Positions 1-58,202 of a stretch of 58,202 bases of DNA are shown here, piece after piece. The translations under genes were made by a program, and so were the position numbers. Source of the stretch: a virus; the IMG/VR virus record IMGVR_UViG_3300005831_000020, positions 1-58,202 of that record. One strand, 5' to 3'. The first letter of the stretch is position 1. Every line of letters begins with the position of its first letter. Below the pieces are notes generated by a model. The model was given only the letters and a program-made list of their open reading frames with translations. It was not told the DNA's origin and ran no database searches.

Positions 1-120
1 GCGTATTGCTCTGCTAGCATTTCGGCCACGCCGTAAATAAGAGGCATATAAAAATACGAGGGAATATCAATACCTTGCGTGTAACTTTCTAGAGTTTCTA
101 TACTGCTTTGACCGCTATAC
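1..120. repeat. Terminal direct repeat, left copy (identical to 58083..58202); circular closure or terminal redundancy
   Basis: Base-by-base comparison by eye: all 120 nt match the last 120 nt of the window. Confidence 0.95.
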
Positions 121-962
121 ATGATCAAATTATACATTGGAGCAGCAGTCTGCCATATATACAGGGATGGAGTACGCTGGTAGTCAACATAGTAAATAGT
201 AGGTCTACCGATTTGCGATTTATTGGGATAAGATAGATATTCATATCTGGATACCTCACTCATGATGGTATCCTGGCTTATACTATTAAAATAAAGTTCT
301 TCAATATCAAGTGTGTATCCCCCTGTTTCTTTAATTCTATATGCTCTTGCATAAATTGGATCAGGTACATAAAACCATGAAATCACGTGTGCTTTATATG
401 GATAAAGGGCAGGACAAGTAAAAACAGTAAACCAATTTATCGTATCTTGTGAGGCTTCTAAAACTAAGCTATATGGACGATTAGAAACATAACTTTGGAT
501 GCCGATAATGCTGATTTGCTTTGTAACTCCCGCTCCATAATCATAAGAAATATTGCCGTCTTGAACGTCTTGCCTACATCTTGTTGCCGGATTACCGTCA
601 AAAGCATAAGCAGCAATTCCTCCGCCGTTTCCATCATAAGTATTTGCCGTATTTGATTGCGGTGTTCCATTTAATTGTCTTACGTTGCCTCGCAAGAATA
701 CCTGAAATATTTTCTGTATATTACTTGGCAAAGGATAGGATGCTTGTCCCGGAGTTAAAAACACAGGTTCTAGTTTTAATGTCCATAAGTTGACGTTAGA
801 ATTAGTCCAATCACTTAAAATAAAATTGATAATATTAAGTGCCGAATTATATTGCTCGGCAGTAACCATGCTAAGCGGCATGCCGATTAATTCATAAGCT
901 TTTCTGATAATCAGCTCTCCTTTTATGTTGCTAAAGCTATAACTTCCACTAGTCGCCGGCAT
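1..962 (-). CDS. Virion structural protein (adaptor/tail-tubular-like) with an inserted discoidin (F5/8 type C)-like domain; 5' part of a gene that wraps the window ends
   Basis: ATG at 962. My hand translation is open to position 1 and continues from 58082 to a TAA at 57974 once the 120-nt overlap is collapsed (356 aa). The central segment AYAFDGNPATRC...ISYDYGAGV...IQSY...LEASQDTINWF...RAYRIKETGG...IEELYF looks discoidin-like. Flanks such as SRYEYLSYPNKSQIGRPTIYYVD resemble conserved podovirus structural proteins. Confidence 0.6.
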   Translation of the reverse strand, partial: MPATSGSYSFSNIKGELIIRKAYELIGMPLSMVTAEQYNSALNIINFILSDWTNSNVNLWTLKLEPVFLTPGQASYPLPSNIQKIFQVFLRGNVRQLNGTPQSNTANTYDGNGGGIAAYAFDGNPATRCRQDVQDGNISYDYGAGVTKQISIIGIQSYVSNRPYSLVLEASQDTINWFTVFTCPALYPYKAHVISWFYVPDPIYARAYRIKETGGYTLDIEELYFNSISQDTIMSEVSRYEYLSYPNKSQIGRPTIYYVDYQRTPSLYIWQTAAPMYNLIMYSGQSSIETLESYTQGIDIPSYFYMPLIYGVAEMLAEQY

Positions 963-1085
963 TTTTAATTTTCCCTTTATAATTGGATAGGATAAGAATT
1001 TGCTATATGAAGCACAACAAGCTTATTATGCTGTGCTTCTGCCTCTGCAAGTAATGTTTTAAATTCCTCTATCATACATATTACT

Positions 1086-2015
1086 TTAGGCTGCCGATCC
1101 TGTTGCTCCTATTACGCCAAGAGGCGTAAACATACCAAAAGAATAACGACCCGATGCCAGTACCGACATAGTCTCGGTTGTTGCATCGGTTGTTACGTTA
1201 ATTTTAAGCGGTCTCCGGACAAAATGCTTACGAGTACCTTTAACGTTAGTTAATCCAAACCAGTTGCTAGGGCTAGTTAAGAAGTGGCTTACTTCATAGC
1301 CGTTTGGAATAGCTTTCATGTTATAAATTGCATTTATATCGTTATTAGCCGTTCCTGTTCTAAAGACAGACTCAAGTAACCGGCAACCTGAGAACATTAA
1401 ATCTTGCGGAAGTAACAATCTATCAATTTGAGCATTGATTAGCAGTCCTGCCTGATCTTTCATTTTACCGGCAAGGATTACTGCCTGCTCAACTCCTGCT
1501 TCGCTAAAGTCAACGTTAACGTTAACGCCGTTATATGATCCGACGCGGTTGGAATAAACACCGCCGTCGTAAGGCTGAGAACCGGAGCAAAGAGGTTGCC
1601 CGTTAGCTAGAGTTGCTGCTACGTTAAATGCCTGGTTAAACGGATTCATCGCTACTACTTCTCTGGTTTGTTCATAGGAAGTAGTAAGTGATCTTGTGCC
1701 GTTAAAAAACTGATCGGCATAAAGATCGTCTTCCATGGCAATATTAGTAATCTGGAAACCGAGAGCAAACTCACGATGGATAAACTCATAGATAAAACGC
1801 TCCCCCATCGTATCCATGCTAATCGGCGCTCCTTGGCTTTTCTCAAGAGCGTATCCGGTTCCTCTAATATCAACCATTCTTTCCGTATGTTTTACGGAAT
1901 TAGATTGTTCGTAGATTTTGGCATATTCCCCTTTAAAGCGAGTATACTGGGATTTGACCTCGGCAAGTCCCGGCCAAAGCAGACTTGGAATATCACCGGT
2001 TGTTATAATAGACAT
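1086..2015 (-). CDS. Major capsid protein (HK97-fold type)
   Basis: 309-aa ORF downstream of TerL, portal and scaffold in the same operon. Size, position and overall sequence pattern fit a major capsid protein. No HMM was run. Confidence 0.7.
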   Translation of the reverse strand: MSIITTGDIPSLLWPGLAEVKSQYTRFKGEYAKIYEQSNSVKHTERMVDIRGTGYALEKSQGAPISMDTMGERFIYEFIHREFALGFQITNIAMEDDLYADQFFNGTRSLTTSYEQTREVVAMNPFNQAFNVAATLANGQPLCSGSQPYDGGVYSNRVGSYNGVNVNVDFSEAGVEQAVILAGKMKDQAGLLINAQIDRLLLPQDLMFSGCRLLESVFRTGTANNDINAIYNMKAIPNGYEVSHFLTSPSNWFGLTNVKGTRKHFVRRPLKINVTTDATTETMSVLASGRYSFGMFTPLGVIGATGSAA

Positions 2016-2017
2016 AA

Positions 2018-56397: not shown

Positions 56398-56435
56398 TTT
56401 AAACCTCTTGTGATCATTTACAATTTTACCATAAA

Positions 56436-57536
56436 TTAAAGCGAAGTATTAAACCTCATCATTCCCGGAGTTAAAGTATTAGGTCGATCCAGGTTATTGC
56501 CGACCGGTATAGTCATCGATTTTTTACCCGTAAATACGGGATTGGGTGTAAAGACCGTCACAATCGGCGTACTTAATAACCCGCTACCGGTTACATCTCC
56601 TTGCAGGGTTAATCCGGTATTTAAAAGAGTATTTAAGTAGTCTTGAGCCGCAGTTGCGCTATTTGCCGCATTAGTTGCCGAGCCGCTTGCACTGCTTGCT
56701 GAATCGCTAGCATCAGATGCCGAACTTGATGCACTACCTGCTGAAAGCCCGGCAGCAAGTGCTGAAGCAGCCGCTGCTCCTGCCGATATTCCAGCTGCCC
56801 CTGCTGAAACACTAGCTTCGCCGGCAGCTGCTGTTGCTTCTGCTGCTGCTCCCGTAGCCTCTGTAGCTGAAGCGGCGGCTTCACCCGCACTCGTTGCCGC
56901 TGCTCCTGCTGAGGTTGATGCTTCTTCAGCTGAAGTAGCAGCTTGCTCTGCGTACTCCTGGCATTGTTGCTTTATTTCTTCTAATTGCTCGGCAGTTGCA
57001 TAATCCTCACCGGCGATAGCAATGGCAAAAGCACCATCAGCAACAATCTTGGCCATTCCTGTACCAAGTTCTTCTAAAACCTGTGCTTCAGGTAAATTAG
57101 TATTTGGAGTTCTAATTATGTAAGTAGCATCACTTGGAGCTGCCTTGCTTGTAATATCTATAAACGATAGAGTACCGGTGCCGTTTGTTGCTATTACCTG
57201 CCCGTTAGTTCCATCCTGCAGCGGTAATCTCCAGATGGTGTTTTGAGTTAAATTACCCGCAGTAAAGCCAACATAATAATCATTAGAAGGATTACTCCAC
57301 TTTAGCCTATTAGTAATAATATCTTCAGTATTAGTGATGCCGGCAGAGTTAATACCGGTTGCATATATTGTATAAAGCTCAGCAGTCCCGCCGGTAATAA
57401 CAGGAGACAAAATACTTTCAAAACTAGCCTCTTTTGCATATAAATAGTTAATTGGAGCAAGTCCCTCTCCTCTATTAGCTAGTGCTAAGAAGGCTGCTTT
57501 TTCTCTATCAAAACCCGGATTAAAATTATTAGCCAT
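56436..57536 (-). CDS. Tail fibre protein with a 14-heptad Ser/Ala repeat
   Basis: SAxxAxx heptads cover residues 202-299. The C-terminus reads ..RPNTLTPGMMRFNTSL. Confidence 0.65.
   Translation of the reverse strand: MANNFNPGFDREKAAFLALANRGEGLAPINYLYAKEASFESILSPVITGGTAELYTIYATGINSAGITNTEDIITNRLKWSNPSNDYYVGFTAGNLTQNTIWRLPLQDGTNGQVIATNGTGTLSFIDITSKAAPSDATYIIRTPNTNLPEAQVLEELGTGMAKIVADGAFAIAIAGEDYATAEQLEEIKQQCQEYAEQAATSAEEASTSAGAAATSAGEAAASATEATGAAAEATAAAGEASVSAGAAGISAGAAAASALAAGLSAGSASSSASDASDSASSASGSATNAANSATAAQDYLNTLLNTGLTLQGDVTGSGLLSTPIVTVFTPNPVFTGKKSMTIPVGNNLDRPNTLTPGMMRFNTSL
56640..56933. repeat. Tandem 21-bp (heptad-coding) GC-rich repeats
   Basis: Encodes SAEEAST SAGAAAT SAGEAAA SATEATG ... 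SATAAQD. Confidence 0.8.
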
Positions 57537-57540
57537 TACT

Positions 57541-57981
57541 TTAGAACTTAATTTGATGCAATGATTCCAAACGCTCTCGTGCGTCTATGTTACTAACACT
57601 CTGGCCGGCAAAATCAGGTAAAACAGGGGGGATATCATCACTTGTAAAGTTGATATCTTCTAAAATAACAGGCGAACTATTACCGATTGCTTCAGGACCT
57701 TGCGGCGTCATAATACCTTCAGGTCTTGGATCTCGTACTACTTTCGGATCGCCTTTTATTTGCGGCGGTCTATTCTGCTCGTTTGGCTCATCTACAAAAG
57801 GACGGCCAACCATAGCTCCCGTCCAGACTAGATCGTTTCCTCGGTATTCATACTGCTTAACTAAATCGGATTTACTAAATAGGAATCCCGAATAATCACA
57901 AACACCAACAGGCTCAATACTATTTTTTCTAACAAACCTTCCTCGTCCTGTATTGACCTTATATCTCTTAAGATTAATCAC
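57541..57981 (-). CDS. Hypothetical virion-module protein
   Basis: 146-aa ORF with a GTG start that overlaps the stop of the wrap-around gene. Confidence 0.5.
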   Translation of the reverse strand: MINLKRYKVNTGRGRFVRKNSIEPVGVCDYSGFLFSKSDLVKQYEYRGNDLVWTGAMVGRPFVDEPNEQNRPPQIKGDPKVVRDPRPEGIMTPQGPEAIGNSSPVILEDINFTSDDIPPVLPDFAGQSVSNIDARERLESLHQIKF

Positions 57982-58202
57982 CGTATACCTCCAGAGTCAG
58001 CGGTACTTCCGTTGTATTATTAATTACGGCATTAGTCATACTCTCTTGATATTTAGCTCTTAAGCTTTCAGTTTTTTCAGGAGCGTATTGCTCTGCTAGC
58101 ATTTCGGCCACGCCGTAAATAAGAGGCATATAAAAATACGAGGGAATATCAATACCTTGCGTGTAACTTTCTAGAGTTTCTATACTGCTTTGACCGCTAT
58201 AC
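57974..58202 (-). CDS. 3' end of the wrap-around structural gene (continues from 1..962)
   Basis: Same reading frame as 1..962 after collapsing the 120-nt overlap. Ends ...EVPLTLEVYGD-TAA at 57974. Confidence 0.6.
   Translation of the reverse strand, partial: YSGQSSIETLESYTQGIDIPSYFYMPLIYGVAEMLAEQYAPEKTESLRAKYQESMTNAVINNTTEVPLTLEVYGD
58083..58202. repeat. Terminal direct repeat, right copy (identical to 1..120)
   Basis: Exact 120-nt match, checked by eye. Confidence 0.95.

Follow-up and report, generated by a model that had tools for sequence, protein, structure and literature searches.

A circular metagenomic genome, probably a short-tailed phage-plasmid of the Rickettsiaceae symbiont Candidatus Megaira polyxenophila

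The phage-plasmids P1, N15, and SSU5 carry replication and partition genes of their own, have no integrase, and bear a variable accessory load; P1 has one replicon for plasmid and another for lytic replication. Genetic manipulation of the obligate intracellular Rickettsiales is difficult, and we know of few phages from this order, those met here being Wolbachia phage WO and one Megaira phage. To our knowledge, phage-plasmids have not previously been described in this host group. The main text of a 2021 phage-plasmid census does not mention the Rickettsiales (Pfeifer et al. 2021). The subject of this work is IMG/VR virus record IMGVR_UViG_3300005831_000020, the whole 58,202 nucleotides (nt) of which are called the window below. 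Like P1, N15, and SSU5, the element in the window has its own replication and partition genes, no integrase, and variable accessory genes; it differs from them in replicon type, virion lineage, and an obligate intracellular host, it has no recognized immunity system, and it has no protelomerase such as that of N15. We judge it likely that the window represents, in full, the circular genome of a phage-plasmid that is temperate, short-tailed (podovirus-like), and hosted by Candidatus Megaira polyxenophila. A preliminary description, made from the sequence alone, had proposed a phage-plasmid-like replicon, and that proposal is supported here by closure of the circle, a virion gene set, a ParA ATPase, and a DnaA-like initiator.

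The described systems nearest to the window each resemble it in part. MAnkyphage_25.80 (OP381185.1; 38,448 bp), reportedly published by George et al. in 2023 in Current Biology, is the only named Megaira phage and has the same host, Megaira polyxenophila. Phage WO (Symbioviridae) is a temperate phage of a Rickettsiales endosymbiont that integrates via a large serine recombinase and has no canonical endolysin; for its lysis, a cassette built on patatin has been proposed (PMC9203015). Plasmids of Rickettsia (pRF, pRAM18/23/32, pRM, and others) and the shuttle vectors derived from them carry a DnaA-like initiator and ParA; some are conjugative, and no virion genes are present in the records and papers examined. 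In Rickettsia, parA together with a dnaA-like gene gives autonomous replication, and parA diversity tracks plasmid compatibility (PMC3244465). Whether Wolbachia plasmids produce particles was left undecided in a 2022 paper on those plasmids (PMC9560607).

A nucleotide search of 72,556 plasmids matched only Candidatus Megaera (Megaira) polyxenophila and one other Megaira. Two plasmids stand out: CP113869.1 (“plasmid unnamed2” of strain NDG2, a Megaira from Euplotes woodruffi; 64,423 bp, circular) and pPCS109 of Candidatus Megaira polyxenophila (AP017967.1; 109,307 bp) are 82 to 88% identical to the window in nucleotide sequence across most of the backbone. Homologues of 40 of the 61 window proteins lie in the same order in CP113869.1 at 66 to 96% amino acid identity, including the small and large terminase subunits (TerS and TerL), portal, capsid, adaptor, nozzle, patatin, RecT/YqaJ, methylases, and the DnaA-like protein. 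The NDG2 genome is a hybrid Nanopore/Illumina assembly (PMC10847448). These relatives belong to the same element family, and their ParA gene likewise adjoins a C5 methylase. They differ in being deposited and typed as plasmids, in their cargo between terS and terL, and in lacking the window's DnaB/426-residue-protein module, resolvase, 739-residue open reading frame (ORF), and Pom porin. Close relatives are thus already known, in GenBank as plasmids and in IMG/VR as viral contigs; no paper describing CP113869.1 or pPCS109 was found in the literature searched.

The window also shares genes with MAnkyphage: the YqaJ exonuclease (79% identical in both amino acids and nucleotides), a 231-residue phage protein (74%), RecT (42%), the resolvase (40%), the N-terminal domain of the 426-residue protein (37%), and a patatin gene (28%) that in MAnkyphage stands beside tail fiber and terminase genes. 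One 900-bp stretch is common to both at 79% nucleotide identity. MAnkyphage differs in having T7-like tail tubular proteins, another capsid, portal, and terminase, a lysozyme, and a lytic transglycosylase, and it has no annotated ParA and no detected full-length DnaA-like protein. Membership of the window in the MAnkyphage lineage was rejected, as tblastn of all window proteins against OP381185.1 gave nonstructural matches only. Because of the 82 to 88% nucleotide identity to Megaira plasmids and the genes common with MAnkyphage, the host can be assigned firmly to Candidatus Megaira polyxenophila, a member of the Rickettsiaceae and symbiont of ciliates and algae. The intracellular-bacterium host suggested in the preliminary description is borne out accordingly.

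In IMG/VR, 63 contigs carry a closely related terminase gene (71 to 98% amino acid identity), and at least 7 encode relatives of both TerL and the DnaA-like protein. In 8 of 13 relatives, a Walker-A ParA gene is found 4 to 7 kb upstream of terL. The pairing of TerL with the DnaA-like gene, and ParA upstream of terL, therefore indicate that this architecture is family-wide.

The evidence for a closed circle begins with the two ends of the window, which are exactly identical over 120 nt. This is the longest prefix equal to a suffix, and identity breaks off sharply on both sides. The overlap is the sole repeat in the window (self-BLAST, E ≤ 1e-5), so a dispersed repeat does not account for it, and the probability of 120 identical nt by chance is negligible. 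The nonredundant unit is 58,082 bp with a G+C content of 36.2%. A minus-strand ORF from 962 crosses the join in frame, continuing from 58082 to a TAA at 57974-57976 (962 + 109 nt, or 356 codons plus stop), and encodes a head-to-tail adaptor. The end identity and the ORF closing over the joined ends, both reported in the preliminary description, were confirmed exactly. The features at the join are as follows.

1-120, no strand: left copy of the 120-nt end overlap, from assembly closure of the circle.
58083-58202, no strand: right copy of the end overlap, redundant with 1-120.
1-962, minus strand: 5′ part of the head-to-tail adaptor gene, with an inserted discoidin (F5/8 type C) domain (phrog_12985, 1e-15).
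57974-58082, minus strand: 3′ part of the adaptor gene including the TAA, completing the 356-residue ORF in frame across the join.

Other assemblies cross this join. The same molecule was recorded a second time as Joint Genome Institute record 3300001373 YBMDRAFT_10053597 (58,181 bp, 99 more than the unit), which begins at window position 52941, passes uninterrupted through 58082|1, and is 100% identical over the 17,157 nt compared. Five contigs of other metagenomes (96 to 98% identity) are collinear over the join, and an intact 356-residue adaptor is encoded in CP113869.1, AP017967.1, and the metagenome-assembled genome (MAG) contig RXKF01000009.1. The ends of a relative, IMGVR_UViG_3300034111_001673 (58,855 bp), likewise overlap exactly, over 127 nt, and its break lies within terL. 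As overlaps of 99, 120, and 127 nt fall at arbitrary intragenic points, the ends are not physical termini and reflect the assembler's closing of a circle. A fixed terminal repeat as the physical genome end was rejected for this reason; it is very unlikely at these ends. The data fit two forms alike: a population of circular molecules, or one that is circularly permuted and concatemeric. The preliminary description had allowed a circular, permuted, or terminally redundant molecule that was not a chromosome fragment: closure stands, as does the nonchromosomal origin, and fixed terminal redundancy falls away.

Metagenome contigs can close falsely on repeats, so the circle might be an assembly artifact; it might also be a chromosomal prophage, excised or integrated, whose integrase lies outside the contig. 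We regard both as exceedingly improbable. The overlap is unique and lies inside a conserved single-copy gene that is intact only on closure, and the join is crossed by an alternative linearization, five contigs, and three GenBank or MAG relatives, with another relative closing elsewhere. Searches covered 61 annotated ORFs of at least 70 codons, 59 against Pfam and the other two (19764-19979 and 36951-37208) against PHROGs only. In none of the 61 did a tyrosine or large-serine integrase, a CI/S24 repressor, a protelomerase, or a transposase or reverse-transcriptase domain appear, and the window holds no insertion sequence (IS), group II intron, tRNA gene, or Rfam family. The profile searches agree with the preliminary description, which had recognized no integrase and no CI/S24 repressor, and the integrase check that it had singled out came back empty. 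A terL scan of 185,579 species-representative genomes gave two matches: a MAG contig of 62.7 kb standing alone, and a fragment whose 2.4 kb do not suffice to show its context.

The phage character of the circle is carried by one long virion and packaging block, which runs on the minus strand from 10542 leftwards, through the join, to 46848. TerS, TerL, portal, a GroES-like protein, the major capsid protein, adaptor, nozzle, and fibers were identified, all as intact ORFs.

8923-10542, minus strand: terminase large subunit (phrog_38, 1.7e-75).
19982-20566, minus strand: candidate terminase small subunit, 194 residues, N-terminal helix-turn-helix (phrog_309, 1e-11; 88% amino acid identity in CP113869.1).
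6570-8903, minus strand: portal, 777 residues (phrog_1216, 6.5e-21; 30% identity to the portal of phage CRP-902, E 5e-66).
5838-6251, minus strand: GroES-like co-chaperonin in the head module (PF00166, 7.7e-5; phrog_3188, 2.5e-10; positioned as GroES gp61 of CRP-902).
2159-5866, minus strand: head-morphogenesis block of 261 (like CRP-902 gp58), 363, 158, and 336 residues (gp58 match and CRP-902 synteny).
1086-2015, minus strand: major capsid protein, 309 residues (35.6% identity over 298 residues to the CRP-902 gp57 major head subunit, E 4e-46).
47846-49549, minus strand: tail nozzle protein (PDB 9nwi, 1.5e-7; 8zkk “nozzle gp16,” 4.2e-4; matches CRP-902 gp40).
49553-50212, minus strand: virion protein, 219 residues, in one block with the nozzle (47846-50212; phrog_3287 and phrog_2941 matches within the block).
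50223-52468, minus strand: 553- and 202-residue tail-region proteins, variable and fiber-like by position.
53637-57981, minus strand: tail fiber/appendage block of a 137-residue protein, a 469-residue fiber with an S74 chaperone domain, a 244-residue immunoglobulin-like fiber or decoration protein, a 366-residue fiber, and a 146-residue protein (PF13884, 8.3e-7; tail-fiber PHROGs).

The best cultured match of TerL is to Roseobacter phages CRP-902/901 (39%), and it has 2,899 metagenome homologues. Besides TerL, these phages share with the window the capsid (36%), portal (30%), adaptor, and gp40 nozzle-like protein, the order TerL-portal-GroES-capsid-adaptor-fibers, and a comparable genome size (52 to 53 kb versus 58,082 bp). 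They differ in an unrelated replication module (primase-polymerase and helicase), a G+C content of 45%, terS directly beside terL, and a chitinase and a peptidase, both lacking from the window; the CRP-902 annotation includes no ParA or DnaA-like gene. Outside the structural genes, the only homology of the window to CRP-902 is in an HNH domain; nucleotide identity at genus level (>70%) to the roseophages was not found, with no megablast match for window positions 1-25000 in 50,697 phage records. CRP-901-type phages are structurally linked to HTVC023P-type pelagiphages (PMC10149686). A GroES-like gene inside the head-assembly block is also seen in CRP-901/902 and their metagenomic relatives.

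The adaptor matches PF24175 SU10_adaptor at 3.8e-5 (24.7 bits, below the curated cutoff of 27) and PF00754 at 1.3e-4. Its N- and C-terminal parts align with the CRP-902 gp54 tail adaptor, about 130 middle residues match the discoidin domain, and it is 90 to 94% identical in relatives. The discoidin (carbohydrate-binding) insertion is kept in all Megaira-group relatives and is absent from the CRP-902 adaptor. For a protein identical to the major capsid protein, a weak match to PF25209 Phage_capsid_4 is on record. The head-morphogenesis block is 75 to 92% identical in relatives; by its position, the 336-residue ORF would be the scaffold. PF26696 PTL_trimer is on record for a 536-residue variant of the 553-residue protein in a sister contig, and the 553-residue ORF is absent from the GenBank relatives. 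As no tape-measure, sheath, or tube protein turned up among the annotated ORFs, a short-tailed particle is expected. The full virion module claimed in the preliminary description (TerL, portal, capsid, and fibers) is therefore borne out by PHROGs, PDB, and CRP-902 matches, with the scaffold placed by position.

The virion set is combined with replication and partition genes of the kind found on Rickettsiaceae plasmids.

34475-35581, minus strand: DnaA-like plasmid replication initiator, 368 residues (tblastn to Rickettsia and Megaira plasmid proteins).
35582-36100, plus strand: divergent AT-rich intergenic region and MarR-like winged-helix regulator (35819-36100; PF12802, 4.7e-6).
25396-28016, minus strand: 426-residue winged-helix protein (26736-28016) upstream of a DnaB-family helicase (25396-26724; PF03796, 6.2e-66).
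17706-18712, minus strand: ParA ATPase (18110-18712) and its 134-residue downstream partner (17706-18110) (CbiA/ParA/VirC1/MipZ Pfam matches).
14159-14734, minus strand: small serine recombinase of resolvase/invertase type, 191 residues (PF00239, 2.2e-41), matching the gene called resolvase in MAnkyphage.

In tblastn against the 72,556 plasmids, the 368-residue protein matched only 20 Rickettsia and 11 Megaira plasmids. The genes matched are mostly annotated as DnaA N-terminal domain-containing or DnaA-like, and the rest as hypothetical or unknown. Identity is 65 to 66% in CP113869.1 and pPCS109 and 35 to 40% over a conserved region of about 90 residues in the Rickettsia plasmids. The pair of DnaA-like initiator and ParA by which Rickettsia and Megaira plasmids are defined is present in the window. 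Metagenomes hold 632 homologues of the initiator, including one fused to PF11638 DnaA_N; a search of PDB sequences was empty or spurious. By analogy with the Rickettsia shuttle vectors, the protein would act as a plasmid-type initiator. The AT-rich spacer divergent from its gene is a candidate origin or operator and contains weak repeats only. In the alphaproteobacterial MAG FJX70, at least four different DnaA-like homologues lie on separate small contigs, which suggests several co-resident replicons of this type in one population.

The 426-residue protein has about 95 N-terminal residues in common with the DnaA-like protein (31% identity). An AlphaFold (AF2) model built on 31 homologues gives its N-terminal domain a winged-helix fold at a predicted local distance difference test score (pLDDT) of 80 to 93. 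Foldseek of the model returned generic MarR/TFE/Rep-like winged-helix matches, none at E ≤ 0.001, and a search of PDB sequences was again empty or spurious. Its label as an initiator comes from its context. The 426-residue protein and DnaB, absent from CP113869.1 and pPCS109, are best seen as an acquired second replication module of phage type, in which the protein would serve replication; the two modules of the window recall the separate replicons of P1. The two initiator paralogues of the preliminary description thus survive as a common N-terminal domain, the second being a generic winged helix that the two plasmid-borne relatives lack.

The window ParA has an identity of only about 26% to its positional counterparts in CP113869.1 and pPCS109, which fits swapping of partition cassettes. 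The preliminary description had paired ParA with a ribbon-helix-helix partner: ParA is supported by Pfam, and the partner's fold is compatible with the description, its model (AlphaFold, no alignment; two beta-alpha-alpha units) being too poor at a pLDDT of 48.9 to judge. The serine recombinase is a candidate multimer resolvase; the res-like site that had been proposed for it did not appear in repeat searches.

A patatin-like phospholipase gene lies in the tail-fiber region.

52542-53624, minus strand: patatin-like phospholipase (PF01734, 1.6e-20).

This is the element's most conserved gene (96 to 97% amino acid identity to relatives; ratio of nonsynonymous to synonymous substitution [dN/dS], 0.06 to 0.07). 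Among 50,697 phage records, homologues were found only in MAnkyphage, six Wolbachia WO records, and one uncultured jumbo phage. Patatin is the best candidate for release and/or membrane crossing, by analogy with WO. WO shares with the window a patatin gene beside tail genes and the absence of a canonical endolysin; it differs in its integration, its baseplate and tail module, and its eukaryotic association module, and patatin identity is only about 26%. Membership in the WO group (Symbioviridae) was rejected, since none of WO's recombinase, baseplate, or association-module domains is in the window. Patatin genes adjoin tail or fiber genes in three unrelated Rickettsiales phage lineages: this element, MAnkyphage (OP381185.1, 7256-8299), and WO. 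The proposed patatin-based release mechanism thereby becomes testable in a second host genus. Two small minus-strand ORFs elsewhere (17433-17648, 71 residues, and 47330-47488, 52 residues) each combine one N-terminal transmembrane helix with a charged tail at the C terminus, which makes them holin-like by general criteria.

Of the features of a phage-plasmid, the window has the virion and packaging set, the plasmid-type initiator, and no integration machinery; lysis genes and a switch were not found. The following results weigh against reading it as a functional temperate phage-plasmid. No canonical endolysin or holin and no CI/Cro-type switch, CI/S24 repressor, or antirepressor was recognized among the annotated ORFs (Pfam, PHROGs, and NCBIfam), and no small transmembrane holin-like ORF adjoins the patatin gene, leaving patatin, the MarR-like regulator, and the small transmembrane ORFs as lysis and switch candidates. 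Four large ORFs, together 7 kb, have no assigned family. The DnaA-like protein itself has no Pfam match, and no iterons, parS, or res site emerged from repeat searches at the DnaA-like, resolvase, ParA, and terL regions or from a whole-window tandem-repeat scan. The closest cultured phages, CRP-901/902, are called strictly lytic, with no lysogeny genes (PMC10149686). Plasmid maintenance of this exact molecule would follow from its relatives by analogy, and the relatives themselves show damage. pPCS109 has IS insertions, one of which splits the nozzle gene, and is fused to a plasmid bearing nonribosomal peptide synthetase genes; CP113869.1 carries group II introns and IS256. CP113870.1 (NDG2 plasmid unnamed3) keeps terL (81% nucleotide identity) without capsid or portal, along with the DnaA-like gene, ParA, YqaJ/RecT, PolB, and a primase-helicase, and looks like a phage-plasmid remnant turned cargo plasmid. 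The lineage can clearly persist without making virions. About 20 kb of CP113870.1 consists of two giant genes with SecA-like domains.

These results bear on an alternative in which the window is a plasmid of phage origin that has lost the ability to make infectious virions and is inherited vertically via the DnaA-like protein and ParA; it would be a plasmid prophage in decay or else a domesticated system resembling gene transfer agents. The missing lysis genes and lysogeny switch would fit, as would the disruption or loss seen in relatives from cultured host-symbiont systems and the PLSDB typing of the Megaira relatives as nonmobilizable. Every virion ORF is nevertheless intact here, and the window contains neither IS elements nor introns. 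Across all shared virion genes, pairwise dN/dS ranges from 0.05 to 0.27 against the two plasmid-borne relatives, even at dS of 0.3 to 1.7, and is below 0.4 against a 97%-identical metagenome variant; the virion genes are therefore kept under purifying selection. Within this set dN/dS is 0.07 for the major capsid protein and 0.13 to 0.17 for the head block (0.17 to 0.36 for the latter against a near-identical contig, a ratio made unreliable by very few substitutions). Near-identical virion modules (96 to 98% nucleotide identity) recur in many independent freshwater metagenomes, as fits horizontal spread, and self-packaging is plausible because the capsid protein is homologous to that of 52-kb phages. 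We therefore hold a noninfectious plasmid to be unlikely, and the window looks like the intact end of a decay series.

The absence of a repressor, and the fact that the structural relatives CRP-901/902 were reported without lysogeny genes, would also suit a virulent phage or a chronic carrier-state phage in which lytic replication or pseudolysogeny would be the task of the DnaA-like protein, ParA, and resolvase, and the end overlap would reflect headful circular permutation. Arbitrary breakpoints are expected of permuted genomes too, and the DnaB and RecT/YqaJ modules are present. Homologous elements are, however, stable circular replicons in the assemblies of two ciliate-associated Megaira strains, and the IS elements and introns accumulated there indicate long residence. 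The replicon type has been shown experimentally to maintain plasmids in Rickettsia, and the transporters, porin, and SpoT-like hydrolase are cargo typical of resident elements. A virulent or chronic phage is thus quite improbable, and a temperate phage-plasmid remains our preferred reading.

Genes for recombination complete the set from which a life cycle for this phage-plasmid can be proposed.

36296-39171, plus strand: recombination module of 217- and 85-residue ORFs, YqaJ exonuclease (37233-38156; PF09588, 3.2e-33), and RecT (38308-39171; PF03837, 9.5e-6).
46848-47333, minus strand: RuvC-like Holliday-junction resolvase (phrog_159, 3.1e-25).

In the carrier state, the element would replicate at low copy from the DnaA-like/MarR region; ParA would segregate it together with the small partner protein, and multimers may be resolved by the serine resolvase. 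After induction, RecT, YqaJ, and RuvC together with the second winged-helix-protein/DnaB module of this copy would produce concatemers, which TerS and TerL would package into capsids, probably from nonfixed ends. Patatin may then provide release and/or membrane crossing, as proposed for WO, and the interval between terS and terL would serve as a hot spot for the partition cassette and swappable low-G+C cargo.

A larger claim is conceivable, and we put it forward only tentatively, as doubtful: that this is an active, horizontally transmitted Rickettsiaceae phage-plasmid, a natural transducing particle with a DnaA-like/ParA replicon whose patatin breaches bacterial and eukaryotic membranes, and whose decay products, resembling CP113870.1, give part of the Megaira plasmid pool a phage-plasmid origin. 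Apart from that claim, an intact element joining a full virion module to the replicon of the Rickettsia shuttle vectors would bring the Rickettsiales within the range of phage-plasmids, and symbionts sharing a protist host would have a route of gene flow for transporter, porin, stringent-response, and lipase genes. A packageable vector backbone for Rickettsiaceae would also suggest itself. The copies known so far, one intact, others laden with introns and IS elements, and one reduced to a terL-only remnant, form a natural record of a phage-plasmid becoming a plasmid.

The remaining plus-strand genes near the virion block include the four large ORFs without a family.

39298-46315, plus strand: four large ORFs of 556, 648, 395, and 735 residues, no credible family match.
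46360-46566, plus strand: small cold-shock-like protein (by eye and by position; cold-shock genes are annotated at the same position in relatives).

The four large ORFs (2,334 residues in total) are Gly-rich with coiled coils, and their G+C content, 0.37, resembles that of the phage core more than that of the cargo. Relatives conserve the first three and have a replacement for the fourth. None of the four had a credible match in Pfam, PHROGs, or NCBIfam, and a PDB sequence search of three was empty or spurious; all four might possibly be internal virion or ejection proteins.

TerS and TerL genes are separated by about 9.4 kb (10543-19981) of low G+C content containing the partition cassette and cargo. 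Cargo and ParA type vary among relatives between terS and terL while the flanks are conserved, marking the interval as a cargo and compatibility hot spot in the packaging operon. G+C is 0.39 to 0.41 in the phage core and 0.29 to 0.31 in the partition, replication-backbone, and cargo blocks. Transfer genes, present on some conjugative Rickettsia plasmids, are absent from the window. The genes of the interval and of the adjoining cargo regions are as follows.

10759-11733, plus strand: Pom-family outer-membrane porin (PF17251, 4.8e-19).
11883-14102, plus strand: 739-residue repeat-rich cargo ORF (no match in Pfam, PHROGs, NCBIfam, or PADLOC; absent from relatives).
14947-17032, minus strand: cargo operon of a 55-residue ORF (16865-17032), then 430- and 206-residue ORFs (ORF sequences; G+C 0.31).
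18809-19690, minus strand: C5 cytosine DNA methyltransferase (PF00145, 9e-50).
20559-23014, minus strand: ParB_N-fused N6/N4 DNA methylase, 105-residue ORF, and ParB-like nuclease (PF01555, 2.3e-23; PF02195, 4e-5; phrog_12047, 1e-10).
23046-23858, minus strand: HNH-AP2 homing-endonuclease-like protein (PF00847, 1.6e-10; PF13392, 1.6e-4).
23883-24578, minus strand: the 231-residue phage protein shared with MAnkyphage (phrog_2300, 1.7e-31).
29269-33941, no single strand: low-G+C cargo and backbone with an SSF-like transporter (PF00474, 2e-6), two ORFs without family, a major facilitator superfamily (MFS) transporter (31976-33298, plus strand; PF07690, 5e-23), and a SpoT-like HD hydrolase (33228-33941, minus strand; PF13328, 8.3e-17).

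The gene at 10759-11733 had been called an omptin in the preliminary description; that identification was rejected in favor of the Pom family, and a different porin gene occupies the site in relatives. The 430- and 206-residue cargo ORFs had no family match in Pfam, PHROGs, NCBIfam, or PADLOC, and the 55-residue ORF is ribbon-helix-helix-like by eye only. NCBIfam gave nothing credible for ten ORFs without family, and PADLOC on ten cargo ORFs returned a weak homing-endonuclease motif only. The 739-residue ORF has internal tandem repeats of 18 to 30 nt and is Lys/Glu-rich; it is possibly a secreted or effector-like protein. A small plus-strand ORF at 31470-31835 carries a homing-endonuclease motif. 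The MFS and SpoT genes also stand a few genes from DnaA-like genes on the Megaira plasmids examined.

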